64,000 nt of DNA from Polyangiales bacterium (GCA_038231275.1 JBBRLQ010000032.1:1-64000); one strand, 5' to 3'; shown: positions 19,759 through 46,110, numbered from the stretch's first letter. Made by a program: numbers and translations. Notes: generated from the sequence alone by a model not told the origin.

Positions 19759-20433
19759 TCAGGTCTCGACGGCCGTGCACTGCTGGATCTCGCCCGAGCA
19801 CTGCTTGACGATCTTGGGAGGACGGCAGGTCACGACGCCGCCGCGCTCGAACGGCTGGCACAGCCACTCGCGGAGGTGGCTGGGGCAGAACATCGTCGTC
19901 CCCGCCTCGGCTTTGCACCCGAACGCCTCGAGCCGCTTCTTCGCTTGCGCGTAAGGGATCTTGATCGCGAGCGACTTCCAGAGATCCGCCGACAGGTCCG
20001 AGCACGTGCTGGCAGCGCGCTGCTCGGGGGAGGTCGCCTCCTTCGCGCCGCACCCGGTCGGGTAGTCACGGGCGTTCGTCGCCGCGCACGCGTCGACTTT
20101 GCCGGCGGTCAGCATCTTCATGCACGCAGGGACGCCGGCCGCCGGGCATTGGTATCCGTTCCCGTACCCGATCGCCGCCATTGATCGACAGGACGCGCCG
20201 CGGATCAGCGTGTCGTCGATCTCCTTCATGAGCGCCGCGTTCGACAGCGCAGCCTTTCCAGAGAAGTCGTAGTCGCCGACGCTCCCGATGATCCCGGGGT
20301 TGGCGCCGGGGTTGCCGGTGGGGACAGGCGCCGGCCCTGGCTTGTTCTCTGCGTGGGCGAAGAACGAGGCGGTCGCTGCGGAGAGGAAGAAGAGGAGCGA
20401 TGCCACGCGCGTGATCGTCATAGGGCCTCTCAT
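19759..20433 (-). CDS. Small secreted Cys-rich protein
   Basis: Signal peptide (FFAHA-EN), 12 Cys; ATGA overlap with the stop of the upstream giant gene. Confidence 0.8.
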   Translation of the reverse strand: MRGPMTITRVASLLFFLSAATASFFAHAENKPGPAPVPTGNPGANPGIIGSVGDYDFSGKAALSNAALMKEIDDTLIRGASCRSMAAIGYGNGYQCPAAGVPACMKMLTAGKVDACAATNARDYPTGCGAKEATSPEQRAASTCSDLSADLWKSLAIKIPYAQAKKRLEAFGCKAEAGTTMFCPSHLREWLCQPFERGGVVTCRPPKIVKQCSGEIQQCTAVET

Positions 20434-23400
20434 TGATCGAGCTTCCATCCGGAGGACACGAGATCGCGGACGGCCTGGGCAGACTGAGCGACGCTCGCGT
20501 CGACCTCCTGAATCGCGAAAATCGGCGTGGTGCTCGTGATGCCGTCCCAGTGGAACAGCTCCGCCTCCGCCGACCAGAGGAGGATCTCGACGAAGCCCGA
20601 CACGGTGCCGGAGAGCGATGAGAGCGTGAAGTCGAGCCCCTGGTTCGCCTCGAAGCGGTTGCCCGCGCTCTTCTTGGCGTTGCCGCCGCCGTCGAAGAAC
20701 TGCACCGACGCGTTCGAGTGGTACGGAAGCCCCATGCGAATGAGCGTGAGGCTCCCCTTCACACCGACCTCGAGGCCCGGCACTCCGATCGCCACCGACA
20801 CGTTGCCGTCGATCTGCGCGTACGGCTCGATGATGTTGCTCAGTTGGAACGGCGTCCGATCGGCGGGCTTCGCCGTGTGCAGGCTGAGCGAGTCCACGTT
20901 GGGCCGGTCGAGCGACGCCGAGATGACGTAGTTGACGCCGGCGTGGAACGTCGCCCACCCGCGTATCGTCACCGGCACGATCACGATCACCACCGTCGTC
21001 GAGTCGTCGAAGAGCGTCTTGTCGTACGAGGCCGGCTCGAATTTGTAGAGCGGCTCGGTCGACGCGTACACAGTCGGCATCACCGCCTTGTTCACCGGCT
21101 CGAAGAGATCGTCACCGACGACGCGGAAGTGCAAGTGGCCCTGGACGATGCGGGCCTTTTCGCCGCCTTGCGCCTTGGCGTGCTCGGCCTGGAACGTGTC
21201 CTTGATGCCGTTTTTCTCGTTCACGTAGTCGCGTCCGCCCGACACCTGGCCGGTCAGGTACTTCTTGTCGGTCGGCGTTGCCCCTTGCTGCAAGTCGAGC
21301 AGGTGACCGTCGGTGAGCGCGATGTCCATGCGCGCGTTGAAGACCTCGTTGGTGGTCCCCAGGATCTTCACGGCCGCAGTCGCGTAGTTGCCGGCCCAGT
21401 ACGTGAAGTTGTCGGAGTTCCCATCCGGCTTGTTCGAGTAGCCCGCGTTCTTGTCGGTCGAGAGGTTGCCGAAGCGGAAGCCGCCGCCCGCGCCGTACTC
21501 CGCGCCGAAGAGATCGCTGCCGAAGCTCCCGTCGGTCGACGTGATCTGCCCGAGCGCCGGCGTCTTGCCGTCCTCGTCGTACGCCTGCATGGCGATGATC
21601 GACGAGACCTCGTCCTGCATCTGCTTGATGATCTCTTTCTCCGCCTCGAGCAGGAGCGCCTCGAACGCCTTCACGCTCTTGCGCGAAGTGTTCCAGTTGT
21701 GGCCGGTGCTCTTGATGAGATCGTTCAGCTTGTTCTTGTACGTGAAGGCGCCCTTGGCGTGCGTGGTGTACCGCTCGCAGCGCTGGGCGTCGGCCTCGCG
21801 CGCCCTGTTGATCTCCTTCCGGTAGGCGTGGCTGAAGTCGATGAGGCGGCTCGGCGACCAGTCGCAGCCGTTCTGGCTCGCGCCGAAGCACCCGAGCTCT
21901 GCGCCGGCGCCGAGCTGCTCGTAGACGAGCGCGTCGATCGCCTCGAGCTTCGGGAGGATGTGCGTCTTCAGCGCCGTCGCGACGGTCTGCGCCTCGCCCG
22001 CCGACAGCGCCGGCGGCATGAACTGGATCGCGTTCGGATCGGCGGGGACTCCGGTCCCTTGAAAGAGCTTCGCGATGCCGAACTGAACGCACTGCACCTC
22101 GGCGTCGTGCGCGGACCGAACGAATGCCGCGTGCCGATCGGCGTTGATTTTGGGCAGATCGGCCTTGTACTGCGTCGCCGCGTCGAGATCCGACTTCACG
22201 TGCGCCGCCCGCACCTGCATCTCGCCCGCGGTGACCGGCAACGGCCTCACCGGGCACCCGATCTGCGAGTGGCACGATAGACCATAGAACACGAACGGGC
22301 CGTACTCGCCGTTCGGGCTGTACTGCACGGCCCACCCGGTGTTCGGCAGCGAGGGCCCGGTGAAGATCGTCTTCGCCTTGGTGATGGGATCGCTCATCTC
22401 CCACCCGCGGCTGATGCCCGCCTGGACGAGGATGGGATCGACCTCGTCGTACCACTTCTTGGTGTAAGGCAGCGTCGCGTCGCCGGTCAGGAGCGCAGAG
22501 TACGTGATGAGCTTGGTGTAGATGTTCTGCTGCGCCGAGGTGTTCGGCGGTGGAAGGGGCAAGGGCTCGGTCTGCTTGCGGCAGGTGGTGCCGACGTTGC
22601 GGATGAAGGTCGTGATCTCGTTCCGCCGCGCGAGCAGGGTCTGCAGATCCTGTTGGCGGTCGTACCGGATCCGGAGCTCCTCGTCGGTGTAGTGGCCCGG
22701 GCGATCCTCCGCGTCCGTCTCCCAGAGCGCGCCGTTCCTTTGCTGGTGCCAGGCGAACGTCTCGTTGATCGTGGGGCTGTCCTTCGCCGTGAACGGCCGG
22801 CGCGTGAAGAGCTCCTGGTTGAAGAAGATTTCGCTCTTCTTCTGGTAGTCGTCGAACGCCGTGATGATCGGCGGATAATTGAGGACGTCGGGGAGGCCGA
22901 GCGAGGGGAAGCGGAGCGCCTTTCCGATCTGCGATTTGGCGTACGGATCCCAATCGTAGAACGTCCGCGAGAAGCCGGCGGCGGCCTGGAGGAACGCGTT
23001 GCGCGGCTCCTTGATCGGCGTGAACGGCAGCGGCGCGGCCGGCGTGACGACGATGTTGCCCAACACGTCCTCGGCGGCGGTCGACGCGGTCGTGGAGACC
23101 TGGCCCTCGGAGTCCCTGACCTCCGCCTTCGCGACGATCGACGCCCACTTCGGCGAGAAGACGAGATCGTAGGTCTTGCGTGGATCGCGCTGGTTGGCGC
23201 TGACGTCGTCGTCGAACTGCGTGAGCGAGAGGTACTTGCGCGCAGCGTACTCGTCGCAGCTGTCGATGAGACCGCCGACGTCGCCGCTCGCGGAGAGCTG
23301 CGTGATGCGCGGGAGCTTCTTCAGCGCGGCCTGCATGTGGGTCAGCTTTGGCGGACGTCCGCCGATCGCCGAGGCCACCGCGAGGCGCGCCGCGGGATGG

Positions 23401-23945
23401 GCGAGGCGCGTCGCGAAGGCGTGGTCCATCCCGCCGACCTTGACCTTGGCCGGATCGTATTTGACGAAGCCGGTCTGCTTCGAGTCGGTGCCGAGCGAGC
23501 GGCGTGACGGGACGACGCGGCGCGCCTTGGGCACCGCCTCGAGCTCCGCTTTGTGGGCTTGGTAGAACGCCTGGCCGCAGTTGCTCCCGGTCGGCGGGCT
23601 CGCCGCGCACGCGTCGAGCTCCTTCCACGATTTGCACGCCGGCGCCGCGTTCGGGCAGCGCGTGGCGAAGGTCGGATCGGCACACGCCGTCTTTTCGTAG
23701 TTCTGGCACGAATCGACGATGGCGCCGGGCGCGCGAACTTTCGGCCCACGCCCGCCCGGCGGAGGGCTCCTGCCCACGCGCGAGTCCCACGTTTGCGGCA
23801 GGCCCGTCTTCGCGTCGAGGACGCGCAGATCGCCGGGTGCTGCGCTGGCGTCGGTCGCGACGGCGAACCCGCCCGCGCAGGCCGCGGTGACGGAGGCCAG
23901 CCAGAGGTGTCGCCAGGTCGGCCGCCGCGCGTGACTTCGTGTCAT
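20430..23945 (-). CDS. Large secreted protein (1171 aa), Cys motifs and long C-terminal amphipathic beta-sheet region
   Basis: GAGGAG RBS before ATG 23945; signal peptide; strong GC3 bias; C-terminal strands TTVVIVIVPVTIRGWATFHAGV...LEVGVKGSLTLIRMGLP...LSSLSGTVSGFV. Confidence 0.88.
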   Translation of the reverse strand: MTRSHARRPTWRHLWLASVTAACAGGFAVATDASAAPGDLRVLDAKTGLPQTWDSRVGRSPPPGGRGPKVRAPGAIVDSCQNYEKTACADPTFATRCPNAAPACKSWKELDACAASPPTGSNCGQAFYQAHKAELEAVPKARRVVPSRRSLGTDSKQTGFVKYDPAKVKVGGMDHAFATRLAHPAARLAVASAIGGRPPKLTHMQAALKKLPRITQLSASGDVGGLIDSCDEYAARKYLSLTQFDDDVSANQRDPRKTYDLVFSPKWASIVAKAEVRDSEGQVSTTASTAAEDVLGNIVVTPAAPLPFTPIKEPRNAFLQAAAGFSRTFYDWDPYAKSQIGKALRFPSLGLPDVLNYPPIITAFDDYQKKSEIFFNQELFTRRPFTAKDSPTINETFAWHQQRNGALWETDAEDRPGHYTDEELRIRYDRQQDLQTLLARRNEITTFIRNVGTTCRKQTEPLPLPPPNTSAQQNIYTKLITYSALLTGDATLPYTKKWYDEVDPILVQAGISRGWEMSDPITKAKTIFTGPSLPNTGWAVQYSPNGEYGPFVFYGLSCHSQIGCPVRPLPVTAGEMQVRAAHVKSDLDAATQYKADLPKINADRHAAFVRSAHDAEVQCVQFGIAKLFQGTGVPADPNAIQFMPPALSAGEAQTVATALKTHILPKLEAIDALVYEQLGAGAELGCFGASQNGCDWSPSRLIDFSHAYRKEINRAREADAQRCERYTTHAKGAFTYKNKLNDLIKSTGHNWNTSRKSVKAFEALLLEAEKEIIKQMQDEVSSIIAMQAYDEDGKTPALGQITSTDGSFGSDLFGAEYGAGGGFRFGNLSTDKNAGYSNKPDGNSDNFTYWAGNYATAAVKILGTTNEVFNARMDIALTDGHLLDLQQGATPTDKKYLTGQVSGGRDYVNEKNGIKDTFQAEHAKAQGGEKARIVQGHLHFRVVGDDLFEPVNKAVMPTVYASTEPLYKFEPASYDKTLFDDSTTVVIVIVPVTIRGWATFHAGVNYVISASLDRPNVDSLSLHTAKPADRTPFQLSNIIEPYAQIDGNVSVAIGVPGLEVGVKGSLTLIRMGLPYHSNASVQFFDGGGNAKKSAGNRFEANQGLDFTLSSLSGTVSGFVEILLWSAEAELFHWDGITSTTPIFAIQEVDASVAQSAQAVRDLVSSGWKLDQ

Positions 23946-24002
23946 GAATCTCCTCGACCCTCGCCGGCGTCGTGCCTGCGAGTCGTGCAAACGGCTCGCT
24001 AG

Positions 24003-24018
24003 AGCAAGGCCGGTGCCG
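24003..24018 (-). promoter_or_regulatory. Putative sigma54 promoter for the 23945-17745 operon
   Basis: Minus strand CGGCACCGGCCTTGCT, close to consensus YGGCAC-N5-TTGCW. Confidence 0.7.
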
Positions 24019-24084
24019 CGCGACGATTTCCTGCGTTTCGGTGCCGCGAGGGTCGTTCAGTGCGCTCGAAGTGAATCGCGTGCG

Positions 24085-26406: not shown

Positions 26407-27246
26407 TCAGCGAAGGACCTGGCCGACGACGACCTCGACGCGATCGCGATGACGGAGCCGCCCGCCCTCTTCGGCGACATGCCCGACCGCCGGGAGGTCC
26501 GCGCCGAGGAAGCGACGCCCGTGCGCCGCGAAGACCGCGGGATCGCCGCTGCACAGGACGCGAAGGGCACCATCGCCAGGCGTGTCATAGTGCGGATGCC
26601 GGACGAGCCACTCGCGGAGGCGCGCGGCGAGGTAGGGCGCCGGGTCGAGGACCTTTGCGCGCGTCGCTCGCTCGAAGGCCGCAGCGAGGAGCGGGTAATG
26701 CGTGCACCCGAGGAGCAGTGTGTCGACGTCCTCGAGCCCCTCCATGTAACGCGCGACCGCTTGCCGTGCGATGTCGGTGTCCTCCCAGCCCTCTTCGACG
26801 AGTGGCGCGAGCAAGGGCGCGGCGCGCTGCGTGACCTTGTGCGTTCCCAGCTTCCGGATCTCCGTCTCGAACGTCCCCGACGCGACCGTGCGCGCGGTTC
26901 CGATCACGCCGATGTGACCCGCGCTCGCCGCGACCGCGACCTCTGCTGCCGGGATCGTCACGCCGAGCACACGCCGCGCGTCGCCCGGTCCGGCGTAGCG
27001 CGCTTGCAGATGGCGAAGCGCGACGCACGAGACCGTGTTGCATGCGACGACGACGAGGCGGCACCCCTCCTCGAACAAACGCTCGGTGCACTGCTCGGCG
27101 AAATCGAGCAGGGTGCTCGTGTCGCGCCCGCCATACGGCGCGCGCCCCGAGTCGCCGAGGTAGATGAAATCGCGCTCCGGCAGCGCAGCGCGCAGCTGAC
27201 GAAGGACCGTGAGCCCGCCGAAGCCCGAGTCGTAGACGCCGATCAT
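26407..27246 (-). CDS. murI: Glutamate racemase
   Basis: IGVYDSGFGGLTV, PYG, VACNT, LGCTHYP. Confidence 0.97.
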   Translation of the reverse strand: MIGVYDSGFGGLTVLRQLRAALPERDFIYLGDSGRAPYGGRDTSTLLDFAEQCTERLFEEGCRLVVVACNTVSCVALRHLQARYAGPGDARRVLGVTIPAAEVAVAASAGHIGVIGTARTVASGTFETEIRKLGTHKVTQRAAPLLAPLVEEGWEDTDIARQAVARYMEGLEDVDTLLLGCTHYPLLAAAFERATRAKVLDPAPYLAARLREWLVRHPHYDTPGDGALRVLCSGDPAVFAAHGRRFLGADLPAVGHVAEEGGRLRHRDRVEVVVGQVLR

Positions 27247-27276: not shown

Positions 27277-28278
27277 TCATCGAATCCACAGCTTGGTGTC
27301 GCCGGTCTGTGAGAGACCGCCCTTGGGCTCGGTGGTGTCCTTCACGCCGGCCCATCCGCCGCCGTTGCCGTTGCACGAAGTCTGTCCCGACTGGGTCCCG
27401 CCGTAGTACGCGCCACGCCCGACCCAGCTCGCGCTATTGCACCCGCAGCCCGTGTTGTTGTCGTCGAGCGGCACGACCGCCCAGCTCGTGTCGCCGGGCT
27501 TGATGTTGTTGTCGTGGGTCGCGACGCAGAGCTTGCCGCCGCCCGCCGAGCTCAGCCACCCCGACAGACGCGCGTCGTTCGTCGAGGTCTGAAGCAGAGG
27601 GACTGCGGTGTTCACGACGTTCGCGAAGAGATCGAAGCTGCCCGGACGGGTGAAGCGCACGTACGACGTGGCCCAGTCGACCCACACGTCCGTGTAGAGG
27701 CCGAGGAAGCGAACCCCGATGAGCCCCGATTGTCCGCCCGTCGCGATCGCGTTGGTGTTGCCGGTGTCGACGTCGAGGAAGCGGAACGTCCCCATTCCGC
27801 CGCTGATTTCTCGCCCGATCAGCGTCCAGCCGCCGCCGTCGATGGTCATGTCGCACCAGACTTGGAAGGGCGCCTTCGGCCCCACGCCGTCGGGGTCTAC
27901 GGTGTAGAGCCCGCTCGTGACGGGCGGCGGCGTCGTCGCGAGGATCTGCCTGCAGGTCGCCGCCGGCGGACAGCCTCCGACCGGGCACGCGTCGAACGGC
28001 GTCGTGTCGGTGGCGACGTCTTTGAGCGGTGCGTCGGCGGCAACGGCGCCATCGTCGGCGTCGAAGTCAGAGGCCCCGTCGCCCCCGGCGTCTACTAGAG
28101 GAGTCGTCCGGTCGACCGGAGCGTCGGTGGACACCCCGGGACCCGCGTCGTCGGGTCCGTCGCCGGTACCCACGAGATCGAGCCCGCACGCGCCTGCCGA
28201 CGAGAAGAAAAGAAGGGCCAGCGGCGGGAGGAGGACTGCCGCGCGACTGTGGCTCGCTTCTTTCGCTCTTCGGCGCAT
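27277..28278 (-). CDS. Lipoprotein with fibrinogen-like (YCDxxxxGGGW) domain
   Basis: TCRQIL...SGLYTVDPDG...VWCDMTIDGGGWTL; AGAC lipobox; DA-rich linker. Confidence 0.85.
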   Translation of the reverse strand: MRRRAKEASHSRAAVLLPPLALLFFSSAGACGLDLVGTGDGPDDAGPGVSTDAPVDRTTPLVDAGGDGASDFDADDGAVAADAPLKDVATDTTPFDACPVGGCPPAATCRQILATTPPPVTSGLYTVDPDGVGPKAPFQVWCDMTIDGGGWTLIGREISGGMGTFRFLDVDTGNTNAIATGGQSGLIGVRFLGLYTDVWVDWATSYVRFTRPGSFDLFANVVNTAVPLLQTSTNDARLSGWLSSAGGGKLCVATHDNNIKPGDTSWAVVPLDDNNTGCGCNSASWVGRGAYYGGTQSGQTSCNGNGGGWAGVKDTTEPKGGLSQTGDTKLWIR

Positions 28279-28407
28279 ACGGCGTGTCCCATTCTAGCGC
28301 GTGGTCGCGCGATTCGATGGGCCCCGGGCGCCAAATGGGTGCGATTTGTAGGGGGTCCTGCGGTCGGATTTTCAAAATCCGTAACATGTCTCCATAATGG
28401 CGCTCCC

Positions 28408-29862
28408 GTGAACGTCCTGTTCGTCACCTCGGAGGTCGCGCGTTACGCCAAGACCGGCGGCCTCGGTGACGTCGCCGCGGCGCTGCCGACCTACCTGCGC
28501 AAGGCCGGTCACGACGTGCGCACGTTCATGCCGCTCTACAAGACGGTGGACGCGAAGGGGGCGAACGTCGAGCCGCTCTTCCGCGACGTCCCGATCCAGC
28601 TCGGCCCGCACCGCTACACGATCGGCGTGTTCGTCGCCGAGCGGCCTGCCGCCGCGCCCGTCTACCTCGTCGACTGCCCGGCGCTCTACCACCGCCCCGG
28701 CCTCTACACCGGCGATCCCGACGAGCACATCCGCTTCCTCGTCCTCTCGCGCGCCGCCCTCGAGATTTGCCAGCGCATGGGATTTTCTCCCGACGTCGTG
28801 CACTGCAACGACTGGCAGACCGCGCTCCTCCCGCTCACGATCGACACGCGTTACCGCTGGGACCGCATCTTCGCCAAGACGCGCACGCTCCTCACGATCC
28901 ATAACATCGGCTACCAGGGCACCGTCGGCCCTCAGGCGATCGGCGACGCGGGTCTCGCCGACTCCGCCAACCTGTTCCACCAGGACCAGCTCAAAGACGG
29001 CCGCGTCAATTTCCTCCTCCACGGCATTCTGTACGCCGACGGCGTCAGCACCGTCAGCCCCACGTACGCGCGCGAGATCCAGACACCCGAGTACGGCGTC
29101 GGTCTCGATGGATTCTTGCGCGCGCGGAGCGGCAGCGTCATCGGCATCCTCAACGGCGTCGACTACGACGAGTGGAGCCCCGAGAAGGACACGCTCATCC
29201 CGCACCGCTACAGCGCGCAGGATCTGTCCGGCAAGGTGAACGACAAGGAGACGCTCCTCACGAAGATGGGCCTCCCGCATGTGCAGGGCGTGCCGGTCAT
29301 CGGCATCGTCTCGCGCCTCGTCGGGCAGAAGGGCTTCCGCCTCCTCGAGGGCGTGATGCCCGCGCTCCTCCGGCGCCACCGCGTGCAGCTCACTGTGCTG
29401 GGCAGCGGCGAGCGGCGCCTCGAGCGCATGTTCAGCGCATGGGAGCGCGCGTTCCCGAAGCAGGTCGCGTTCTACCGCGGCTTCTCGAACGAGCTCGCGC
29501 ACCTCATCGAGGCGGGGGCCGACATGTTCCTCATGCCGTCGCTCTACGAGCCGTGCGGCCTGAACCAGATGTACAGCCTCCGCTACGGCACCGTCCCGAT
29601 CGTCCACGCCACCGGAGGCCTCGCCGACTCGGTGAAGCTGTGGGATCCCGACACCGGCAAGGGCACCGGCATCTCGTTCGCGAACCACGACGCGCGCGCG
29701 GTCAAATGGGCGATCGAAGCCGCGCTCACGCTCTACGATGACAAAGCCGCGTGGCGGCGCTTGATGCAAAATGGAATGGCCGAGGACTTCTCCTGGGACA
29801 CCCAGGCGAAGGTGTACGAGCGCGTCTATTCGCGCCTCGTCGCGGGAGGGGGGAAAGGCTGA
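28408..29862 (+). CDS. glgA: Glycogen synthase (GT5)
   Basis: KTGGLGDV, HCNDWQT, TIHN, TVSPTYAREI, GILNGVD, EPCGLNQMYSLRYGT; start GTG 28408. Confidence 0.96.
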   Translation: MNVLFVTSEVARYAKTGGLGDVAAALPTYLRKAGHDVRTFMPLYKTVDAKGANVEPLFRDVPIQLGPHRYTIGVFVAERPAAAPVYLVDCPALYHRPGLYTGDPDEHIRFLVLSRAALEICQRMGFSPDVVHCNDWQTALLPLTIDTRYRWDRIFAKTRTLLTIHNIGYQGTVGPQAIGDAGLADSANLFHQDQLKDGRVNFLLHGILYADGVSTVSPTYAREIQTPEYGVGLDGFLRARSGSVIGILNGVDYDEWSPEKDTLIPHRYSAQDLSGKVNDKETLLTKMGLPHVQGVPVIGIVSRLVGQKGFRLLEGVMPALLRRHRVQLTVLGSGERRLERMFSAWERAFPKQVAFYRGFSNELAHLIEAGADMFLMPSLYEPCGLNQMYSLRYGTVPIVHATGGLADSVKLWDPDTGKGTGISFANHDARAVKWAIEAALTLYDDKAAWRRLMQNGMAEDFSWDTQAKVYERVYSRLVAGGGKG

Positions 29863-29864
29863 TC

Positions 29865-31088
29865 ATGCACATCGTGTTCGTCGAGCCGCGATTTCCGGCA
29901 AATCAGAAATTGTTCATCAAGGGCCTCGCCGAAATCGGCGTGACGATCACCGCCATCGGCGAGGGCTCGAAAGACTCGCTCGACGACGACCTCAAGAAGT
30001 GGCTCACGCACTACCACGAGGTCACCAACGTCACCTCCGAGAGCCAGATGCTCGACGCGGTGCGCTGGGTTCAAGGACGCGCGCACGTCGATCGGCTCGA
30101 AGCGACCATCGAAGCGCACATCATGCCGGTGGCGAAGGTGCGCGAGGCGGCGGGCATCCCCGGCACCAGCGTCAAGACCGCCTACCTATGCCGCGATAAG
30201 CCGGCGATGAAGGAGGTGCTCCGCAAAGGCGGCGTGCCGTGTGCGCAGTCGACCGGCGTGTCGACCGCGAAGGAGGCGATGGAGTTCGCCGAGCAGGTCG
30301 GCTTCCCGCTCATCTTGAAGCCGCGCGACGGCGCCGGCGCATCGGGTGCCGCGCGCGCCGACTCGATGGCCGAGCTCGGACCCGCGCTCGAGTCGCTCGG
30401 CGTAGGCCACCCCGGCCGCAGCATCGCAATCGAGGAGTACATCGAGGGGCACGAGGGCTTCTACGACACGCTCTCGATCAACGGCACGATCGTCCACGAC
30501 TTCGCGTGCCACTACTTCCCGAACGTCCTCGAAGCGATGCGGACGCGCTGGATCTCCCCGCAGTTCGTCTCCACCAACCGCATCGACGGCGAGACGTACG
30601 GCGAGGTGAAGACGCTCGGCAAGAAGGTCATCGAGCTCCTCGGCATCGAGACCTCGGCGACCCACATGGAGTGGTTCTTCGGCCCCAAAGGCCTCAAATT
30701 CTCGGAGATCGGCTGCCGTCCGCCGGGCGTGCGCGCGTGGGATCTCTACAACGTCGGCAACGACATGGACCTCTACCGCGAGTGGGCGATGGCGGTCTGT
30801 CACGGCCGCCCGAGCCAGCGCGCGTCGCGGCGCCTCTCCGCCGGCATCATCGCGCTGCGGCCGAGCTGCGACGGCCACATCATCGGCTACGATGGGCTCG
30901 AGACGATCGGCAAGGCGTTCGGCCCGAACATCATCGATTTCCACACGCCCCCCGAGGGCACGCCCACCCAGCCCGTCTCCGCCGGCTTCATGGCGAACGC
31001 CTGGGTCCGCTTGAAGCACGAGAACTACGACGAGCTACGCCGTATGCTGGATGTCGTCGGACAGACCGTGAAAGTGCATGCCAGGTAA
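29865..31088 (+). CDS. ATP-grasp ligase (paralog A)
   Basis: CRDKPAMK, FPLILKPRDGAGA, IEEYIEG, THMEWF, FSEIGCRPPG. Confidence 0.9.
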   Translation: MHIVFVEPRFPANQKLFIKGLAEIGVTITAIGEGSKDSLDDDLKKWLTHYHEVTNVTSESQMLDAVRWVQGRAHVDRLEATIEAHIMPVAKVREAAGIPGTSVKTAYLCRDKPAMKEVLRKGGVPCAQSTGVSTAKEAMEFAEQVGFPLILKPRDGAGASGAARADSMAELGPALESLGVGHPGRSIAIEEYIEGHEGFYDTLSINGTIVHDFACHYFPNVLEAMRTRWISPQFVSTNRIDGETYGEVKTLGKKVIELLGIETSATHMEWFFGPKGLKFSEIGCRPPGVRAWDLYNVGNDMDLYREWAMAVCHGRPSQRASRRLSAGIIALRPSCDGHIIGYDGLETIGKAFGPNIIDFHTPPEGTPTQPVSAGFMANAWVRLKHENYDELRRMLDVVGQTVKVHAR

Positions 31089-31097
31089 GTTGCCACG

Positions 31098-32018
31098 ATG
31101 ACCGTCGTCCTCACTGGACCGCAGTATGTCTTGCCGCACGTGGGGGGCGTGCTTCGTGAGCTGAAGGTGCGCGGTCCGGTGGCCGTCGTGACCGCGGGCT
31201 GGCAAGAGCGCGAGACCGATCCGGGCCTCGTCCCCGAGCTCGGCCTGCCGACGGTGAACCTGACGCTCCACTCGCGCGCCGAGGACCTGTTCGCGAAGGA
31301 CAAGGAATTCGGTGCAGCCTACAAGGAACGCCAGACGCGCCTGCGCCTCATGCAGGACTTCTACCGCGTTCGCCTCGATCATGCCCGCGACGCCGCGCAC
31401 GCCATCTCGGTGCGCCACGTCGACTCGTTGCTGCTCGACGACGAGCGTCGATCGTCGATCGACGCCGTGCGCAGCCTCGATCGCGACCACCTCGCGCGGT
31501 GCGCCACCGTCAGCTCCGCGTTCGACGAGAAGTGGCCGCTCGCCGCGCGCGAGAGCATCGAGCGGCAGAAGAAGGAGCTCACCGCACTCCTCGCCCCGAC
31601 CGACGCGGTGCTCATCGCCGGCGGGCACGTCGCGGTGCTCCTCAATCGCCTCAAGCTCTTCGATCTGATGACGCTCATCGGCAACCGCACGATCGTCGCG
31701 TGGTCGGCGGGGGCGATGACGCTGTGCGAGCTCGTCGTCCTTTTCCACGAGAACCCGCCGCACGGGCAGGGGGGCGCGGAGCTGCTCGATCGCGGCCTCG
31801 GCGTCGTGAAGGGCGTCGCGGTGCTGCCGAGCCCGCGACTTCGCTTGCGCTTGGACGATCCGATCAACGTCGGCAACTTCGCGCGGCGCTTCGAGCCGCT
31901 CGCGTGCGTGACGCTCGATCACGGCGCGCGCCTCGTTGCCAAGCGCGGCAAGGTCGTCGCCGGCGCGGTCACGCAGCGGCTCCTCCCGGACGGCAGCATC
32001 CAGCGGGGGTGGCCGTGA
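31098..32018 (+). CDS. Peptidase S51 / cyanophycinase-like class I GATase-fold protein
   Basis: LIAGGH..VLLNRL, AWSAGAM nucleophile elbow, RGLG..LP. Confidence 0.75.
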   Translation: MTVVLTGPQYVLPHVGGVLRELKVRGPVAVVTAGWQERETDPGLVPELGLPTVNLTLHSRAEDLFAKDKEFGAAYKERQTRLRLMQDFYRVRLDHARDAAHAISVRHVDSLLLDDERRSSIDAVRSLDRDHLARCATVSSAFDEKWPLAARESIERQKKELTALLAPTDAVLIAGGHVAVLLNRLKLFDLMTLIGNRTIVAWSAGAMTLCELVVLFHENPPHGQGGAELLDRGLGVVKGVAVLPSPRLRLRLDDPINVGNFARRFEPLACVTLDHGARLVAKRGKVVAGAVTQRLLPDGSIQRGWP

Positions 32019-33154
32019 GCGGCGCGCGCGCGATCGAGAAGTTCCTCGCAGGCCCGCACACGACGGCCGCGGTCGACGCGTTCCTGGCGTCGAACACGTT
32101 CCCCATCGTCGAGGGCTCGCAGATCACCTTCGTGTACAAGGGCGTCGCCGACGCGGTGCACTTGAAGCACTGGGTCTACGGCCTGCCGTCGTCGCAGACG
32201 CTCGCGAAGGTCGACGGCGTCGATCTCTGGCACCTGACCCTCGGCGTGCCTGCCAAATCGCGCATCGAGTACAAGCTCGAGGTCGTCCGCGGCGGCAAGG
32301 GCGAGTGGATGGAGGATCCCCTCAACGCGAGCCGCGCGCGCGATCCGTTCGGCGCCAACTCGGTCGCGCACGGCGAGGGCTACCAAACGCCCGACTACAT
32401 CGAGCGCGATCCCGAAGCCCGCACCGGCCTCGTCGACGAGGTGATGCTCGACAGCAAGGCGCTCGGCCGCCGCACGTTCGGCCTCTACTTGCCGGCGCGC
32501 TACCGGAAGAGCCGGCGCTACCCGCTCCTCGTCGTCCACGACGGACACGACTACCAGAAGTACGCGCGCCTCCAGGTCGTGCTCGACAACCTCATTCACC
32601 GGCTGGAAATCCCCGACATCGTCGTCTGCATGACGAGCTCGCCCGATCGCCTCGTCGAGTACGCGAACGACGAACGTCACGCGCGTTTCCTCACGGAAGA
32701 TCTCGTCCCTCATCTCGAGAAGACGCTCCCGCTCGAAGCGCGCCCGCAGGGACGCTGCCTCATGGGCGCGAGCTTCGGCGCCGTCGCCGCCCTCGCCGCC
32801 GCGTGGCGGAACCCCGGATTTTACGGGCGCCTCCTCCTCCAATCCGGCTCGTTCGCCTTCGCCGACATCGGCGCGCGCAACCACCGCGGCCCGCTCTTCG
32901 ATCCGATTGTGCGGTTCGTGAACGATTTTCGCGCCGATCCGATCGCGGTGAGCGAGAAGGTCTTCGTCAGCTGCGGCACCTACGAGTCGCTCATCTACGA
33001 GAACCGCTCGCTGGTCCCGGTGCTCGAGGGGACGGGCATGGACGTCCGGTATGTCGAGGCCCGGGACGGCCACAACTGGGAAAATTGGCGGGATCGTCTC
33101 CGGGAGGGCCTGTCGTGGCTGTTTCCGGGGCCTCTCCTGCTGGTATACGAGTGA
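32015..33154 (+). CDS. Alpha/beta-hydrolase esterase (Fes-like) with N-terminal CBM48/E-set-like domain
   Basis: ITFVY...LWHLTL...IEYKL...DPLN; YPLLVVHDG, GASFG, QSGSF, DGHNW; GTGA overlap with the upstream gene. Confidence 0.88.
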   Translation: MSGARAIEKFLAGPHTTAAVDAFLASNTFPIVEGSQITFVYKGVADAVHLKHWVYGLPSSQTLAKVDGVDLWHLTLGVPAKSRIEYKLEVVRGGKGEWMEDPLNASRARDPFGANSVAHGEGYQTPDYIERDPEARTGLVDEVMLDSKALGRRTFGLYLPARYRKSRRYPLLVVHDGHDYQKYARLQVVLDNLIHRLEIPDIVVCMTSSPDRLVEYANDERHARFLTEDLVPHLEKTLPLEARPQGRCLMGASFGAVAALAAAWRNPGFYGRLLLQSGSFAFADIGARNHRGPLFDPIVRFVNDFRADPIAVSEKVFVSCGTYESLIYENRSLVPVLEGTGMDVRYVEARDGHNWENWRDRLREGLSWLFPGPLLLVYE

Positions 33155-33167
33155 AGGGAGGCTTCGC

Positions 33168-34412
33168 ATGGCCCACGTGACACGCAGGATCGGTCTGTCT
33201 CTCGGCGCCGATATCTGCTGGCCGATTTGTTACGAAGAGATCGTGAAGCGGCTCGCCCTCTCGGTGCCGCATGCGGGGGATACCGTCGGCGTCGAGGTCG
33301 AGCGCGTGACGATCGAGCCGTTCGATCTCCGCCAACCGTGCCGCTACGACGTCGTCGTCGATCGGCTGACGCACTGGTACCACCCGAGCCGCGAGTGGAT
33401 AAAAAAGGCCGTCCTCATGGACGACCTCTACGTCTTCAACAATCCCTGGTCCGTGCAGTCCATGGAGAAGCAGACGACGTACTGCGCCATGATGCACCTG
33501 GGGATGCCGATCCCGGAGACGTGGCTCGTGCCGCCGAAGTCGTACGAGGCACTCCCCGATCTCGGCCCCACGCTGAAGAGCTACGCCAAGCTGTTCGACC
33601 TCGGCGCCGTCGGCAACGAGCTCGGCTACCCGATGTTCATGAAGCCGTACGACGGCGGCGGCTGGAAGGGCGTGAGCCGCATCGCCGACGAGGCGGCCCT
33701 GCGCGCGCGCTACGACGAGAGCGGCAAGCTCGTCATGCACCTGCAGAAGGCGGTCGAGCCGTTCGATCGCTTCATCCGCTGCATCGGCTTCGGGCCGCAG
33801 ACCAAAATAGTCCGCTACGATCCTGGCGCGCCGCTCCACGATCGCTACACGATGGACAAGAACTTCGTGTCGGACGACGAGGCGCAGGTGCTGCGCGACA
33901 CGACGCTCACGATCAACGCGTTCTTCGGCTGGGACTTCAACTCGTGCGAGGCGCTCAGCAAAGACGGCGTCTGGTTCCCGATCGACTTCGCGAACCCGTG
34001 CCCCGACTCGCAGGTGACGTCGCTCCACTACCACTTCCCGTGGGTCGTGATGGCGAACGTGCGGTGGTCGCTCTACTGCGCGGTCACCAACCGTAAGATG
34101 CGGCGCACGCTCGACTGGGACCCGTTCTACGAGGTCGCCAAGAAGGATCTGCCGTACCGGGACAAGCTGCGCGCGTACGCAAAGATCGCGAACGAGCGCT
34201 TCGAGACCGCGCAGTTCGAGGAGTTCTGCGGCACGCACCTCGCGAACCTCGACGAGATCGCGTGGGAGTTCTTCGGCACGCAGACCGCGAAAGACGCCGT
34301 GCGCAAGAAAGTGACCGCGCTCTTCCCGCCCGCCGAGGTGGAGCAGTTCACCGAGCTCTTCTGGAATCGCATCGGCGCGTGGCGCACCGACATGAAGTCG
34401 GGGGCCCGATGA
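33168..34412 (+). CDS. ATP-grasp ligase (RimK/glutathione-synthetase-like, type B)
   Basis: YVFNNP, MPIPETWLVP, YPMFMKPYDGGGWKGV, HLQKAV, IDFANPCPD. Confidence 0.88.
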   Translation: MAHVTRRIGLSLGADICWPICYEEIVKRLALSVPHAGDTVGVEVERVTIEPFDLRQPCRYDVVVDRLTHWYHPSREWIKKAVLMDDLYVFNNPWSVQSMEKQTTYCAMMHLGMPIPETWLVPPKSYEALPDLGPTLKSYAKLFDLGAVGNELGYPMFMKPYDGGGWKGVSRIADEAALRARYDESGKLVMHLQKAVEPFDRFIRCIGFGPQTKIVRYDPGAPLHDRYTMDKNFVSDDEAQVLRDTTLTINAFFGWDFNSCEALSKDGVWFPIDFANPCPDSQVTSLHYHFPWVVMANVRWSLYCAVTNRKMRRTLDWDPFYEVAKKDLPYRDKLRAYAKIANERFETAQFEEFCGTHLANLDEIAWEFFGTQTAKDAVRKKVTALFPPAEVEQFTELFWNRIGAWRTDMKSGAR

Positions 34413-35149
34413 GCGAATGGAAGACGAGCGCGAAGTGGTTTTCGGAGCGCGTCCAACGTGAGGTCACGATGGTCCGTTGGGGCACCGTCGGCCAGCCCGT
34501 CCTCCTCTTCCCGACCGCCGGCGGCGACGCGGAGGAGATCGAGCGCTTCCACATGATCACGGTCTTGAAGCCGCTCCTCGAGGCCGGCAAAATCAAGATC
34601 TACTCGTGCGACAGCGTCGCCGGCGCCGCGCTCCTCTCGCGCGAGAAGAACGCGCGCCACCAAATGTGGCTCCAGAACCAGTTCCATCAGTACCTCCGGC
34701 ACGAGGTGGTGCCGGCGATCCGCAAGGACTGCGAATCGTCCGACATGGAGGTGTGGGCCGCCGGCGCGTCGATCGGCGCGTTCCACGCCGTCGCGATGGT
34801 TTGCCGCTTCCCCGACGTTTTCGCGCGCGCGTGCGCGATGTCGGGCACGTTCGACATTCGACGCTTTTACGACGCGACCGAGTTCACCGACGATTTCTGG
34901 GTCTCCTCCCCGATCCACTTCGTGCCGACGCTGTCGGGTCCGCACCTGGACAAGCTCCGAACCCGGTACATCCTGATGCCGTCGGGCGAAGGGAGGGCCG
35001 AGGACATCGGCGAGTCGTGGCGAATGGGGAACGCGCTCGGCAAGCAAGGCGTGCCGAACCGCGTCGATCCGTGGGGCGCGCACGTGCCGCACGACTGGGA
35101 GACGTGGCGCAAGATGCTCCCGCAATACCTCGGGGAATGGACGAAGTAA
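34409..35149 (+). CDS. Alpha/beta-hydrolase esterase
   Basis: PVLLFPTAGG, GASIGAFHA, MSG, HDWETW; ATGA overlap with the upstream gene. Confidence 0.88.
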   Translation: MSEWKTSAKWFSERVQREVTMVRWGTVGQPVLLFPTAGGDAEEIERFHMITVLKPLLEAGKIKIYSCDSVAGAALLSREKNARHQMWLQNQFHQYLRHEVVPAIRKDCESSDMEVWAAGASIGAFHAVAMVCRFPDVFARACAMSGTFDIRRFYDATEFTDDFWVSSPIHFVPTLSGPHLDKLRTRYILMPSGEGRAEDIGESWRMGNALGKQGVPNRVDPWGAHVPHDWETWRKMLPQYLGEWTK

Positions 35150-35150
35150 G

Positions 35151-37106
35151 ATGACCACCACGCGCTCGCACAAGCAGGTCGACCAGGAGCAAGACGCGCA
35201 GGCGCGACGCGAGTTCATGCACGCCATCCTGGCGGACTTGCGCGCCCTCGAGCGGATGCTCGCCGAGGGGATGTTCGAGAAAGGCGTGCGGCGCGTGGGC
35301 GCGGAGCAGGAGATCTTCCTCCTCGATCCCAGCTGGTACCCGGCGCGCGGCGTCCTCCAGATGCTGGAGAAGCTCTCGGACCCGCACTTCACGACCGAGC
35401 TCGGGCAGTTCCAGCTCGAGGCGAACTGCGATCCCCAGCCGTTCGGTGGTATCGGGCTGTCGCTCCTCGAGAAGCAGCTCGACGGCCTCGTCGACAAGGC
35501 GCGACTGGCGGCGGCCGAGCTCGGCATGCGAACCGTGCTCATGGGCATGCTGCCCACCATCCGCAAAGAGGATCTGTGTCTCGAGGCGATGGTCCCGAGC
35601 CCGCGCTACCTCGCCATCAACAAGGCCATGTTCGACCTGCGCGGCGGCGCGTTCGACTTCTCGATCAAGGGCCTCGACGAGCTCATCATCCAGCACGACT
35701 CGGTGATGGTGGAGGCGTGCAACTCGAGCTTCCAGGTCCACCTCCAGGTCGACGCCGACGAGTTCGCGCGCATGTACAACCTGTCGCAGCTGCTCGCGGC
35801 GCCGATGGTGGCGCTGTCGTGCAACTCGCCGCTGCTCTTCGGCAAGCGCTTGTGGGCGGAGACACGCATCGCCCTCTTCAAGCAGGCGGTGGACACGCGC
35901 AGCCACACGCACCACCTCCGCGAGAGCGAGGCGCGCGTGAACTTCGGCACGCGCTGGGTCAAGGACTCGGTCCTGGAGATTTACCAGGAAGACGTCGCGC
36001 GCTTCCGCACGCTCGTCGGCACCGATCTCGACGAGGATCCCATGGCCAAGCTGGACCGCGGCGAGGCGCCGCTCCTCAAGGCGCTGCGCCTCCACAACGG
36101 CACAGTCTACCGCTGGAACCGCGCTTGCTACGGCATCATGGACGGCAAGGCGCACCTGCGGATCGAGAACCGCGTCATGCCGGCCGGCCCGAGCGTGGTG
36201 GACGAGGTCGCCAACGGCGCCTTCTGGTTCGGCGTCATGGTGGAGATGGGCGCGAAGGAAGAGGACATCACCCGCAAGATCGACTTCGATCAGGCGGGCG
36301 CCAACTTCTACACCGCCGCGCGCGAGGGGCTCGGCGCGAACTTCACCTGGCTCGACCAGAAGGATCTCTCGGCCGATCGCCTCGTGCTCGATCAGCTCAT
36401 GCCGCTCGCCGAGGCGGGGCTCCGTCGCCAGAAGATCGCCGAGGATGACATCAAGAGATACCTCGGCGTCGTCGACGCGCGCGTTCGGTCGGGACGCACC
36501 GGCACCAAGTGGCAGATGACCTCCTGGAACGCGCTCAAGGACAAGGCGACGCCCGCCCAGCGCGCGAGCGCCCTCGTTGCGGCGACGGTCGACCGGCAGG
36601 CGACGCGGCGCCCGGTCGCCGAGTGGGAGCGCGCACGCCTCGACGAGGCGGGCGACGAGTCGGCTCGCAACTACATGCGCGTGGACCAGTACATGGCCAC
36701 CGACCTCTTCACCGTGCAGGAGGACGACCCCATCGAGATGGTCGTCAACCTCATGACCTGGGAGCGCATCCGCCACGTGCCGGTGGAGGACAAGGAGCGG
36801 CGCCTCATCGGCCTCATCTCGTACCGCTCGGTGCTGCGCTTCCTGGCGGCCGGTCGCTCGCTGAAGGACACGCCGGTCAGCGCGATCATGAAGAACGAAG
36901 TGACGACCGTGACGCTCGAGACGCCCACGGTCGACGCGATGCGCCTCATGCGGAAGCTCCGGGTGGGCTGCCTGCCCGTGGTCCACGAGGGTCGGCTCGT
37001 GGGTCTCCTGACCGACGAAGACTTCATGAACATCGCGACGAAGCTCCTCGAGCAGAGGCTGGCGAGTGGCTCCAGCGAACCCGAACGCGAGCCCGAGAGG
37101 ACCTGA
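35151..37106 (+). CDS. Glutamate-cysteine ligase family 2 (GCS2) carboxylate-amine ligase fused to a CBS pair
   Basis: VGAEQEIFLLD, TTELGQFQLEAN, SFQVHLQV, LRIENR; C-terminal IRHVPVED...LIGLIS and GCLPVV...LVGLLT. Confidence 0.9.
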   Translation: MTTTRSHKQVDQEQDAQARREFMHAILADLRALERMLAEGMFEKGVRRVGAEQEIFLLDPSWYPARGVLQMLEKLSDPHFTTELGQFQLEANCDPQPFGGIGLSLLEKQLDGLVDKARLAAAELGMRTVLMGMLPTIRKEDLCLEAMVPSPRYLAINKAMFDLRGGAFDFSIKGLDELIIQHDSVMVEACNSSFQVHLQVDADEFARMYNLSQLLAAPMVALSCNSPLLFGKRLWAETRIALFKQAVDTRSHTHHLRESEARVNFGTRWVKDSVLEIYQEDVARFRTLVGTDLDEDPMAKLDRGEAPLLKALRLHNGTVYRWNRACYGIMDGKAHLRIENRVMPAGPSVVDEVANGAFWFGVMVEMGAKEEDITRKIDFDQAGANFYTAAREGLGANFTWLDQKDLSADRLVLDQLMPLAEAGLRRQKIAEDDIKRYLGVVDARVRSGRTGTKWQMTSWNALKDKATPAQRASALVAATVDRQATRRPVAEWERARLDEAGDESARNYMRVDQYMATDLFTVQEDDPIEMVVNLMTWERIRHVPVEDKERRLIGLISYRSVLRFLAAGRSLKDTPVSAIMKNEVTTVTLETPTVDAMRLMRKLRVGCLPVVHEGRLVGLLTDEDFMNIATKLLEQRLASGSSEPEREPERT

Positions 37107-38033
37107 ATGGCGAGGGTGGAGACGATGGAAAGCGCGCGCCTCATCGATCGACTCGTCGGCGACGAGGCCGGCCCCACGCTCATCCTGGTGGGCGGCATGC
37201 ACGGCAACGAGCCCGCCGGTGTGAACGCCGCGCGCGACGTCCTCTCCGCACTCCGCGTGTCCGGCGCAAGTGTGCGCGGCGAGGTCGTGGCATTCGCCGG
37301 CAACGTCCGCGGGCTCGCCGCCAAGACGCGCTACCTGTCGCGCGATCTGAACCGCATGTTGACCGCCGAGCGTGTCGCCGCGTCGCGCGCCACCGAGGAG
37401 CCGCAGGCCGAGGTCGCCGAGGTCGTCGAGCTCGCCGCCGCGATCGACGAGGCGATAGCTCGCGCGCGCGGCCCGGTCTACGCGATCGACATGCACACGA
37501 CGTCGGCGTCCGGCGTCCCGTTCAGCGTCGTCGGCAACAACGACGCGCGTCGCGAGTTCGCCCGCAACTTCCACATCCCCGGCCTCGTCGGCCTCGAGGA
37601 GGCGCTCGAGGGCGTCCTCACGAGCTACCTCGCGACGATCGGCTGCGTGACGATGGCTGTAGAGGGCGGCCAACACGAGAGCGTCGACGCTGCCGCCAGC
37701 CTCGCGGCGGTCGTCACGATCGCGCTGAGGGCGACCGGCATCGTCCGCGCCGAAGATCTCCCCGGTCTGGAAGCCGCCGAGGCCGACCTCTCTCGCGCGC
37801 GCGGAGAGCTCCCTCCTCTGATCGCGGTCCTCACGCGCTACGCCGTGGAGCCCGAGCTCGGATTCCAAATGGAGCCCGGCTTCGCGAACATCCAGCCGAC
37901 GCCGCGCGGCACCTTGATCGCCAAAGACGGCAAAGGGGACATTCGCGCGCCGTTCGACGGCCTCGTCCTCCTCCCGCTCTACCAAGCGCAGGGCAACGAC
38001 GGCTTCTTCTTCGGCCGCCCGCTCCGCGACTGA
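37107..38033 (+). CDS. Succinylglutamate desuccinylase/aspartoacylase (M14) family deacylase
   Basis: GGMHGNEPAG, RDLNRM, IDMHT, VEGG; abuts the upstream stop codon. Confidence 0.88.
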   Translation: MARVETMESARLIDRLVGDEAGPTLILVGGMHGNEPAGVNAARDVLSALRVSGASVRGEVVAFAGNVRGLAAKTRYLSRDLNRMLTAERVAASRATEEPQAEVAEVVELAAAIDEAIARARGPVYAIDMHTTSASGVPFSVVGNNDARREFARNFHIPGLVGLEEALEGVLTSYLATIGCVTMAVEGGQHESVDAAASLAAVVTIALRATGIVRAEDLPGLEAAEADLSRARGELPPLIAVLTRYAVEPELGFQMEPGFANIQPTPRGTLIAKDGKGDIRAPFDGLVLLPLYQAQGNDGFFFGRPLRD

Positions 38034-40827: not shown

Positions 40828-42732
<1,905 letters not shown>

Positions 42733-43239: not shown

Positions 43240-43616
43240 ACAAGGCCCGAAGTCGAAGACGAGAAGTAGGGCGCAAAGTGTCGGGATTGCTCTTGGGGGC
43301 AGGCTGGATTTTCGGCCTCGTCGCGTGCAGCGGCAGGCCGCCTCCCGAGTCGATCACACCCGTGTCCGATACCCAGCTCACGCCGGAGCTCAGGGCGGAC
43401 TACGACGTCTTTGCGCAGAGATGCTCGAAGTGTCACTCACTCGCAAAACCGCTCAATAGCCACGTGGACGACGACCAAGTCTGGATTCGTTACGTGGCCA
43501 AGATGCGGAGGCAGCCCGCGAGCGGAATATCCGAACGGGATGGCGAAGCAATCCTTCGATTCCTGCACGTGCTCGTCGAGCAAGAGCGTGCAAAAAACGC
43601 GGAGAAATCCAAGTGA
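43236..43616 (+). CDS. Small monoheme c-type cytochrome lipoprotein
   Basis: LVAC lipobox; FAQRCSKCHSL...W..YVAKM; ATGA overlap. Confidence 0.85.
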   Translation: MNKARSRRREVGRKVSGLLLGAGWIFGLVACSGRPPPESITPVSDTQLTPELRADYDVFAQRCSKCHSLAKPLNSHVDDDQVWIRYVAKMRRQPASGISERDGEAILRFLHVLVEQERAKNAEKSK

Positions 43617-46087: not shown

Positions 46088-46110
46088 GGGGCGCATGCTA
46101 CAACGGGGTC

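Follow-up and report, generated by a model that had tools for sequence, protein, structure and literature searches.

A glgA-linked cassette of ligase and hydrolase genes in a Polyangiales bacterium and its possible amino-acid-derived product

Glycogen metabolism is regarded as well mapped. In glg operons, as in cph operons, the genes for synthesis and breakdown lie together, a pattern of reserve systems. Among the ATP-dependent ligases, those of the VanA type form esters, and amino acids are added to ribosomal protein S6 by RimK and, in a comparable way, to carriers of the LysW type. Yet in the locus described here four to five ligases that depend on ATP, together with three to four hydrolases, appear to be wired to a dedicated clade of the glycogen synthase GlgA. 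This locus occupies positions 28408-38033 of a stretch of 64,000 nucleotides (nt) of DNA from a Polyangiales bacterium (GCA_038231275.1 JBBRLQ010000032.1:1-64000; “the window,” to which all coordinates refer). It comprises eight genes, i.e., glgA, an ATP-grasp ligase gene (grA), an S51-like hydrolase gene, a two-domain esterase gene (estN), a second ATP-grasp ligase gene (grB), a small esterase gene (est2), a GCS2-CBS ligase gene and an M14-type deacylase gene. It had been singled out from the sequence of the window as a candidate glycogen-linked peptide or amide system (hereafter the original prediction). We tentatively prefer the view that it serves an amino-acid-derived compound made alongside glycogen.

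A widespread cassette and its link to glgA

The eight genes are predicted to form one operon, which is the window's copy of a ligase/hydrolase cassette carried by hundreds of bacterial species from soil, sediment and water, spread over many phyla. With the window copy of grB, the most conserved gene of the cassette, as a query, 425 relatives were found in one-genome-per-species contigs, with identities of 64-92% across phyla; the copy from a metagenome-assembled genome (MAG) of the Actinomycetes yielded at least 591 relatives in such contigs. According to the record titles the carriers, all of them MAGs, belong to the Myxococcota, Acidobacteriota (including Thermoanaerobaculia and Holophagae), Planctomycetota, Eisenbacteria, Binatia, Gemmatimonadota, Acidimicrobiales, and alpha- and gammaproteobacteria. 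In a large protein collection grB matched at least 5701 clusters of 90% identity at E ≤ 1e-60. Among the matches listed, all clusters were unnamed or “hypothetical” save one with a generic ATP-grasp label, and none had a precomputed Pfam domain; the Atlas cluster of grB, with 8601 members, is also unnamed. A distant family related to grB (32-38% identity, approximately 340-390 amino acids) was encountered in Myxococcota without a cassette orthologue, where its members form pairs a few kb apart (G039:C36:42641-47641, G166:C3:2018356-2023515, and G221:C88:6236-11639).

The window proteins were mapped onto 123 unique loci, 59 of which reach at least 7 kb to either side of grB and are termed fully flanked here. 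Among the latter, estN is present in 55 and the S51-like gene in 53, followed by est2 (43), grA (41), glgA at an identity of at least 45% (29), GCS2 (22), and M14 (13). Two further ATP-grasp genes, grC (44870-46108, minus strand) and grD (46150-47325, plus strand), which are divergently oriented and whose start codons are not fixed, lie 7 kb downstream of the operon; they occur in 35 and 33 of the fully flanked loci, respectively, and on this evidence are assigned to the system. The original prediction counted three ligases and four hydrolases; those seven are present, but the list was incomplete, since grC and grD at 44.9-47.3 kb have to be added. Given its recurrence in other phyla, the arrangement goes far beyond what chance would produce. 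Intergenic gaps within the cassette have medians of only 17-69 nt (counts that include contigs fetched twice), which is too little for a conserved small gene that would encode a precursor or a carrier. Fusions were considered as Rosetta stones (grB+est2, grB+est2+GCS2, grA+estN+grB, GlgA+grA, and grA+estN) and given little weight, since each was found in one sequence and may be an artefact of frameshift or gene calling; one nr record of a grA-estN protein bears the name Actinoplanes digitatis.

The gene that heads the operon, glgA (28408-29862, plus strand), encodes a glycogen synthase of the ADP-glucose type (GT5), which matches TIGR02095 with 533 bits (cut-off 328) over profile positions 1-476 of 477; no NCBIfam equivalog cut-off was reached by cassette GlgA. 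K15, G17, G18 and L19 (KTGGL) and the region E381-Q387 (EPCGLNQ) are invariant in 37 orthologues of the cassette clade, KTGGL and E-P-C-G-L being the N- and C-terminal motifs of GlgA. In a maximum likelihood tree of 42 sequences, which was read by hand, all nine cassette-unlinked paralogues, the copies on contigs C4 and C7 of the genome under study among them, are united in a single clade (support 97/99); the 32 cassette-linked sequences are all placed on the opposite side and one divergent GT5 stands apart. Cassette GlgA is the sole GlgA match at E ≤ 1e-60 in 5 of 12 genomes, which had been picked for having glgA in the locus. Since it is the only copy in some genomes and has kept both motifs, it appears to be functional, and it looks like a working glycogen synthase rather than a recruited glycosyltransferase. 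To judge from the tree and from gene order, cassette GlgA represents a separate, dedicated clade of ordinary ADP-glucose glycogen synthases that is genetically coupled to the system. In five loci of the Planctomycetota and Holophagae (L063, L075, L077, L157, and L183) the position of glgA beside grA is taken by a divergent GT5, which is 26-27% identical to the GlgA of the window; two of these proteins were scored against TIGR02095 and reach approximately 280 bits, below its cut-off.

Homologous clusters were found to be associated with alpha-glucan genes, as the original prediction required: 35 of the 59 fully flanked loci contain glgA, the divergent GT5, glgB or glgP, and loci with such a gene span the Myxococcota, Acidobacteriota, Planctomycetota, Binatia, Eisenbacteria, Gammaproteobacteria, and one MAG of the Actinomycetes. 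In 41 of 52 unique loci that hold glgA, this gene immediately precedes grA in the same orientation, at a median gap of 17 nt. Of the 123 loci, 5 contain glgB and 7 a glucan phosphorylase of the DUF3417 type (glgP), as judged from clusters of stop-to-stop open reading frames, of which only the smaller ones were used after Pfam annotation. Among 17 genomes without glgA in the locus, 4 encode a cassette-type GlgA at another site, between grC/grD and grA, 2 have a divergent GT5 next to grA within the cassette, 3 encode a cassette-type GlgA whose 1.5-kb flanks are devoid of ATP-grasp genes, 5 have a distant paralogue only, and 3 (MAGs of which the completeness is not known) have none.

A more even sample was provided by 300 Myxococcota genomes that are at least 90% complete, counted by hand, in which GlgA was called cassette-type at an identity of at least 52% (the next best was 47%). 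A grB orthologue occurs in 67 of these, and a GlgA match was found in 65 of the 67 carriers vs. 142 of the 233 non-carriers, ratios that overstate the significance because related genomes are not independent. Cassette-type GlgA is present in 21 genomes, 19 of which carry grB; no more than 12 of the 67 carriers have it at a distance of up to 15 kb from grB, and in two entire families the genes for ligases and hydrolases form loose clusters among themselves, with glgA located far away. The positional link to glgA is, thus, frequent but not obligatory, and the glycogen link of the original prediction holds in part: the glgA-grA pair supports it, but the spread over the Myxococcota shows that the system is not bound to a neighbouring glgA.

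Predicted activities of the cassette proteins

To the gene content, conservation, co-occurrence and GlgA clade structure observed directly can be added the folds and intact catalytic motifs of the encoded proteins. Profile and fold searches agreed with the families named earlier, i.e., GlgA, the ATP-grasps, the S51-like protein, the PF00756 esterases, GCS2-CBS and M14. grA (29865-31088, plus strand) encodes an ATP-grasp protein, with matches to the ATP-grasp families of Pfam, that resembles L-amino acid ligases (LALs). Its closest solved relatives are the L-amino acid ligase 4wd3 (E 4e-13) and BacD, a similarity at superfamily level only, as it scores 49 bits against NF053745 (BacD), of which the cut-off is 850. 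The second and third ATP-grasps of the LAL type, grC and grD, both with ATP-grasp matches in Pfam, are 34 and 32% identical to grA, respectively, and grC has orthologues at 42-80% identity in other loci. A fourth LAL-type paralogue of grA (33% identity) is found outside the window, at G000:C7:221930-223141.

The second ligase of the operon, grB (33168-34412, plus strand), is more divergent and has no Pfam match. Its structural model (predicted local distance difference test score, pLDDT, of 83) retrieved ArgX/LysX, RimK, Ddl and an ATP-grasp enzyme of ribosomally synthesised and post-translationally modified peptides with Foldseek at E 4e-9 and probability 1.0, so the protein is predicted to have the ATP-grasp fold; residues 290-410 form an extra, confidently folded C-terminal helical domain. 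Sequence profiles matched Ddl/VanA, and the scores for the RimK family (TIGR00768; 16.7 bits, cut-off 143.4) and LysX (TIGR02144; 19.6 bits, cut-off 275.6) are far too low for membership. The lysine and Mg-site residues are kept across orthologues.

Of the hydrolases, the S51-like serine hydrolase (31098-32018, plus strand), which resembles PepE and cyanophycinase and contains a helical insert of approximately 100 residues, matches PF03575 weakly, with 18.3 bits for the window protein against a cut-off of 23.9; a match at E ≤ 0.01 (best 2.8e-10) was obtained for 29 of 32 orthologues. Its nucleophile elbow reads WSAGAM, with Ser203 kept in 30 of 32 orthologues, and H177 and H217 are invariant; in the PDB it finds similarity to PdxT-type amidotransferases only. 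The next gene, estN (32015-33154, plus strand), encodes a two-domain esterase with an E-set/CBM48-like N-terminal domain of approximately residues 1-125 and an alpha/beta hydrolase domain (PF00756, 70 bits; the match to Enterochelin_N is weak), in which Ser253 of the GASFG motif is invariant. The estN model (pLDDT 92) confirms the two-domain build and gives its best Foldseek E-values with CBM48-CE1 feruloyl esterases (3e-25, template modelling score, TM, 0.59) and its best TM (0.70-0.73) with Fes, although against the Fes family NF007758 estN scores 85 bits, with a cut-off of 222. The label “CBM48-like esterase” that was given to it earlier is, therefore, fair on E-values, though Fes has the same build. 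The second esterase, est2 (34409-35149, plus strand), is a small PF00756 protein (40 bits) whose gene overlaps grB by 4 nt. Inspection of the translations revealed no N-terminal signal sequence in any cassette hydrolase and, therefore, the system would be cytoplasmic.

The last two genes appear to be a lineage-specific add-on rather than part of the core. GCS2-CBS (35151-37106, plus strand) is a GCS2-type carboxylate-amine ligase (PF04107, 39.4 bits vs. 21) fused to a pair of CBS domains (86.9 bits vs. 24), and among the matches listed none is a solved relative of the ligase domain, all being to CBS. The M14-type deacylase of the AstE/AspA family (37107-38033, plus strand; PF24827, AstE_AspA_cat, 71.9 bits vs. 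25) has an invariant HGNE motif and H130, and scores below the AstE and aspartoacylase equivalogs (TIGR03242, 38.6 vs. 305.7; NF002601, 43.1 vs. 180). In 47 unique loci with GCS2-CBS the partner is M14 in 18 and an FGase-like protein (PF05013) in 14, never both, and neither in 15, several of which are truncated; for the 22 fully flanked loci these numbers are 13, 5, 0, and 4. M14 occurs only alongside GCS2 (13 of 13 fully flanked loci) and the FGase-like gene never without it in fully flanked loci, while no homology between M14 and the FGase-like protein was detected (hhalign probability 0.06%). Both families are annotated as N-acyl-Glu/Asp amidohydrolases releasing Glu or Asp, and GCS2-CBS with either partner is interpreted as a pair that would attach and release an acidic amino-acid unit. 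The two CBS domains are suggestive of regulation by the adenylate or ionic state.

What the cassette might make

Four to five distinct orthologous ligases point to several different bonds, and their combination with three to four hydrolases of different classes suggests that these bonds are both made and reversed, some of them probably being esters. The explanation that we rank first, though we hold it to be somewhat short of an even chance, is a compound derived from amino acids that contains amide bonds and probably also ester bonds, and that would be made and recycled alongside glycogen without being covalently part of it. Its core would consist of the S51-like hydrolase, estN, the RimK/LysX/Ddl-like grB and est2, joined by three orthologous LAL-like ATP-grasps, grA in the operon and grC and grD downstream of it. 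Each of the four to five ligases would use ATP to activate a carboxylate, and units of the amino-acid type would thereby be linked stepwise into an oligomer or polymer, to which GCS2 would add an acidic (Glu/Asp) unit; the product would be dismantled by the S51-like enzyme together with both esterases and the deacylase. Since enzymes for synthesis and breakdown stand in one operon, as they do in glg and cph operons, the compound would be of a reserve type or protective, and its deposition and mobilisation would go hand in hand with those of glycogen. The second rank goes to covalent decoration of glycogen, the third to a small-molecule pathway unrelated to glycogen and the last to protein tailing.

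Several observations weigh against the companion compound. The proposed chemistry, from the single steps to the kind of product, is deduced wholly from family membership, and the esterases may act on a sugar ester, the best E-values of estN being to CBM48 polysaccharide esterases. The phylum counts are phylogenetically non-independent. The FGase-like variant is found in one Myxococcota subclade, and its alternation with M14, to which the FGase-like protein has no detectable homology, may go back to a single displacement event there. Finally, 2 of the 67 Myxococcota carriers and 3 of the 17 MAGs have no GlgA and, therefore, the glycogen link, if real, may not be obligatory.

The E-values of estN favour the strongest alternative, which is covalent decoration of glycogen. 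Here the ligases would esterify amino acids or other acids, possibly short peptides, onto glucose hydroxyls of the alpha-glucan growing from the linked GlgA; estN would bind the glucan through its CBM48-like domain and strip the esters together with est2, and the S51-like enzyme and M14 would trim the peptide part. It would follow, doubtful as we hold this to be, that the glycogen of these lineages is not a plain glucan and that its modification is reversible and energy-sensed through CBS. The best Foldseek and profile matches of estN do include the two-domain CBM48-CE1 polysaccharide esterases 8bf3, 6rzn and 7b5v, but Fes, which does not act on polysaccharide, shares this architecture and has the better global TM (0.70-0.73 vs. 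0.59). The conserved adjacent glgA-grA pair (41 of 52 loci), cassette GlgA as the only GlgA match in 5 of 12 genomes, a GlgA match in 65 of 67 carriers and the occasional glgB (5) and glgP (7) among the 123 loci would all fit a decorated glucan, as would the ester-forming VanA-type ligases among the sequence relatives of grB. However, 24 of the 59 fully flanked loci have no alpha-glucan gene, glgA is absent from three Acidimicrobiales and three Gemmatimonadota/Longimicrobiales loci, and the even Myxococcota sample has cassette-type GlgA within 15 kb in only 12 of 67 carriers. To our knowledge, there is also no ATP-grasp enzyme that acylates a sugar. A predicted complex of GlgA and grA scored 0.00, which counts neither way. 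Taken together, we consider decoration of glycogen unlikely, if still a serious competitor.

That 24 of the 59 loci have the core (S51-estN-grB-est2) without any alpha-glucan gene would equally suit an amino-acid-derived small molecule that is functionally untied to glycogen, with the proximity of glgA reflecting shared regulation or genomic hitch-hiking. Whole Myxococcota families have the core far from glgA (approximately 166 kb in G170; on different contigs in G038 and G062) and GlgA is common anyway, in 208 of 301 genomes. This seems improbable, however, since the link recurs in at least six phyla and in several gene orders, the separate GlgA clade tracks the cassette (19 of the 21 genomes with the clade carry grB), and glgA stays with the LAL ligases where the system is split. 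Protein tailing, in which grB and the LAL ligases would extend a protein or carrier at its C-terminus by amino acids that M14, the S51-like enzyme and the esterases would take off again, finds some footing in the nearest folds of grB (ArgX/LysX bound to LysW, RimK bound to RpsF) and in its extra helical domain (residues 290-410), which could hold a partner, but is very improbable in view of the lack of a conserved small carrier gene that fits the 17-69-nt median gaps, the distance of grB from the RimK (16.7 vs. 143) and LysX (19.6 vs. 276) cut-offs, and a C-terminus of cassette GlgA that is neither conserved nor acidic in the consensus.

Either of the two leading outcomes, a companion reserve or protective compound or a covalent modification of glycogen, would add to the carbon and nitrogen storage of phyla that belong to the uncultured majority. 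Solving the system would also give a function to the grB family, which has thousands of “hypothetical” members and no Pfam model. New here are the split of the GlgA clade, the two-module architecture, the tempered linkage figures, the module of GCS2-CBS with M14 or FGase, and the membership of grC and grD.

Genomic setting and relation to described systems

In the operon itself, the layout of eight co-oriented genes at 28408-38033 was reproduced in coordinates, strand and spacing: the stop-to-start gaps are, in order, 2, 9, -4, 13, -4, 1, and 0 nt, and in an open-frame scan of this range all eight frames lie on the plus strand with a high third-position GC content. A weak sigma-70-like promoter match upstream of glgA (28369-28398, plus strand) rests on the consensus only; two such sites, which overlap, were counted vs. 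0.6 expected in shuffles, within a divergent intergenic region of 129 nt. No terminator-like site of the plus strand was found between the operon genes, the sole one in this range (33202) falling inside the start of grB.

Flanking genes were considered as members of the system and rejected, as the racemase, fibrinogen-like, di-haem oxidoreductase and Ser/Thr kinase genes and the open reading frame at 43460-44800 are conserved only in the near-identical relative L085; since the remaining window neighbours are common to L085 only, the operon boundaries stand. The gene for a member of the Asp/Glu racemase family (26407-27246, minus strand; PF01177, 57 bits), two genes upstream of the operon and cassette-adjacent only in that relative, is tempting as a supplier of D-amino acids. 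A secreted-looking protein encoded divergently from glgA (27277-28278, minus strand) has a weak match to a fibrinogen C-terminal domain (PF00147, 28 bits), which is unusual in bacteria. Between the operon and grC/grD lie genes for a di-haem oxidoreductase (PF06537; 38176-39786, plus strand) and a Ser/Thr protein kinase (40828-42732, plus strand). Kinase genes near the cassette in several further loci are probably unrelated paralogues, because their identity is only 29-39%. Farther upstream, an open frame of 1209 codons (20430-24056, minus strand) has a strong coding signal (third-position GC 0.91).

The genome as a whole (G000; 9.28 Mb, 164 contigs, 94% complete) has three GlgA paralogues (on C32, C4, and C7), glgC on C9 and glgP on C14 and C51, of which C32 alone is the window contig. 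The statement that glgB, glgC, glgX and glgP are missing from the window is borne out, in that the glgC, glgP and GH13 matches of this genome all lie off C32, glgX being covered only through GH13 cross-matches of the glgB model. Despite three GlgA, GlgC and GlgP, no GH13 branching enzyme of this genome exceeds the cut-off of TIGR01515, the best match (138 bits) lying on C7; branching enzymes of the GH57 type were not searched for. An FGase-like gene was not found in this genome. A true cyanophycin synthetase is encoded elsewhere (G000:C13:109288-113821, 1153 bits) and, therefore, the product of the cassette is not simply cyanophycin; a second, shorter CphA-like gene (336 bits) adjoins it on C13.

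Searches of the cassette proteins against Pfam, NCBIfam and PDB profiles matched no characterised pathway, and thus none unrelated to glycogen of the kind that would have spoken against the original prediction. In the consulted part of a 2024 review on alpha-glucan enzymes of prokaryotes, none of the terms ATP-grasp, esterase and amino acid ligase was found in a passage search. A full-text literature search found no published account of this neighbourhood, although an earlier comparative-genomic mention is possible, as the amidoligase survey of Iyer et al. (2009) lies outside its coverage.

The described systems nearest to the cassette each share part of its make-up. With classical glg operons (e.g., glgBXCAP) it has in common a bona fide GT5 GlgA, which here stands at the head of the operon, and the union of synthetic and degradative functions in one transcription unit, but the other seven genes here are amide/ester ligases and hydrolases, and glgB, glgC, glgX and glgP are found neither in the operon nor in the window. 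The two-domain build of estN, with an Ig-like N-terminal domain and PF00756, is that of Fes (2b20, 3c87, and 3mga) and of CBM48-CE1 feruloyl and acetyl-xylan esterases (6rzn, 8bf3, 7b5v, and 6mot); in contrast to these, estN would be cytoplasmic, stays under the Fes cut-off and has no siderophore or xylan genes nearby. RimK, LysX and ArgX and the D-Ala-D-Ala (VanA) ligases are the nearest folds and sequence relatives of grB, which, however, misses the family cut-offs, carries a C-terminal helical domain of approximately 120 residues and has no adjoining carrier-protein gene. Stand-alone L-amino acid ligases (4wd3; BacD, 3vmm and 3wnz; BL00235, 3vot) are the nearest solved relatives of grA, grC and grD (E 4e-13 to 6e-8) and have the same ATP-grasp architecture and size, but the known ones belong to narrow antibiotic clusters, whereas grA, grC and grD constitute three orthologous lines with 42-86% identity across phyla that are tied to glgA. 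The cyanophycin system (CphA1 with CphB, S51), finally, has the same combination of ATP-grasp chemistry and an S51-type hydrolase, is cytoplasmic, keeps its genes for synthesis and breakdown together and follows a reserve-type logic. The cassette differs from it in lacking both a CphA-type protein (grA reaches approximately 35 bits against TIGR02068, of which the cut-off is 850) and a Mur-ligase-like domain, and in adding two PF00756 esterases, four separate ligases and the link to glgA.

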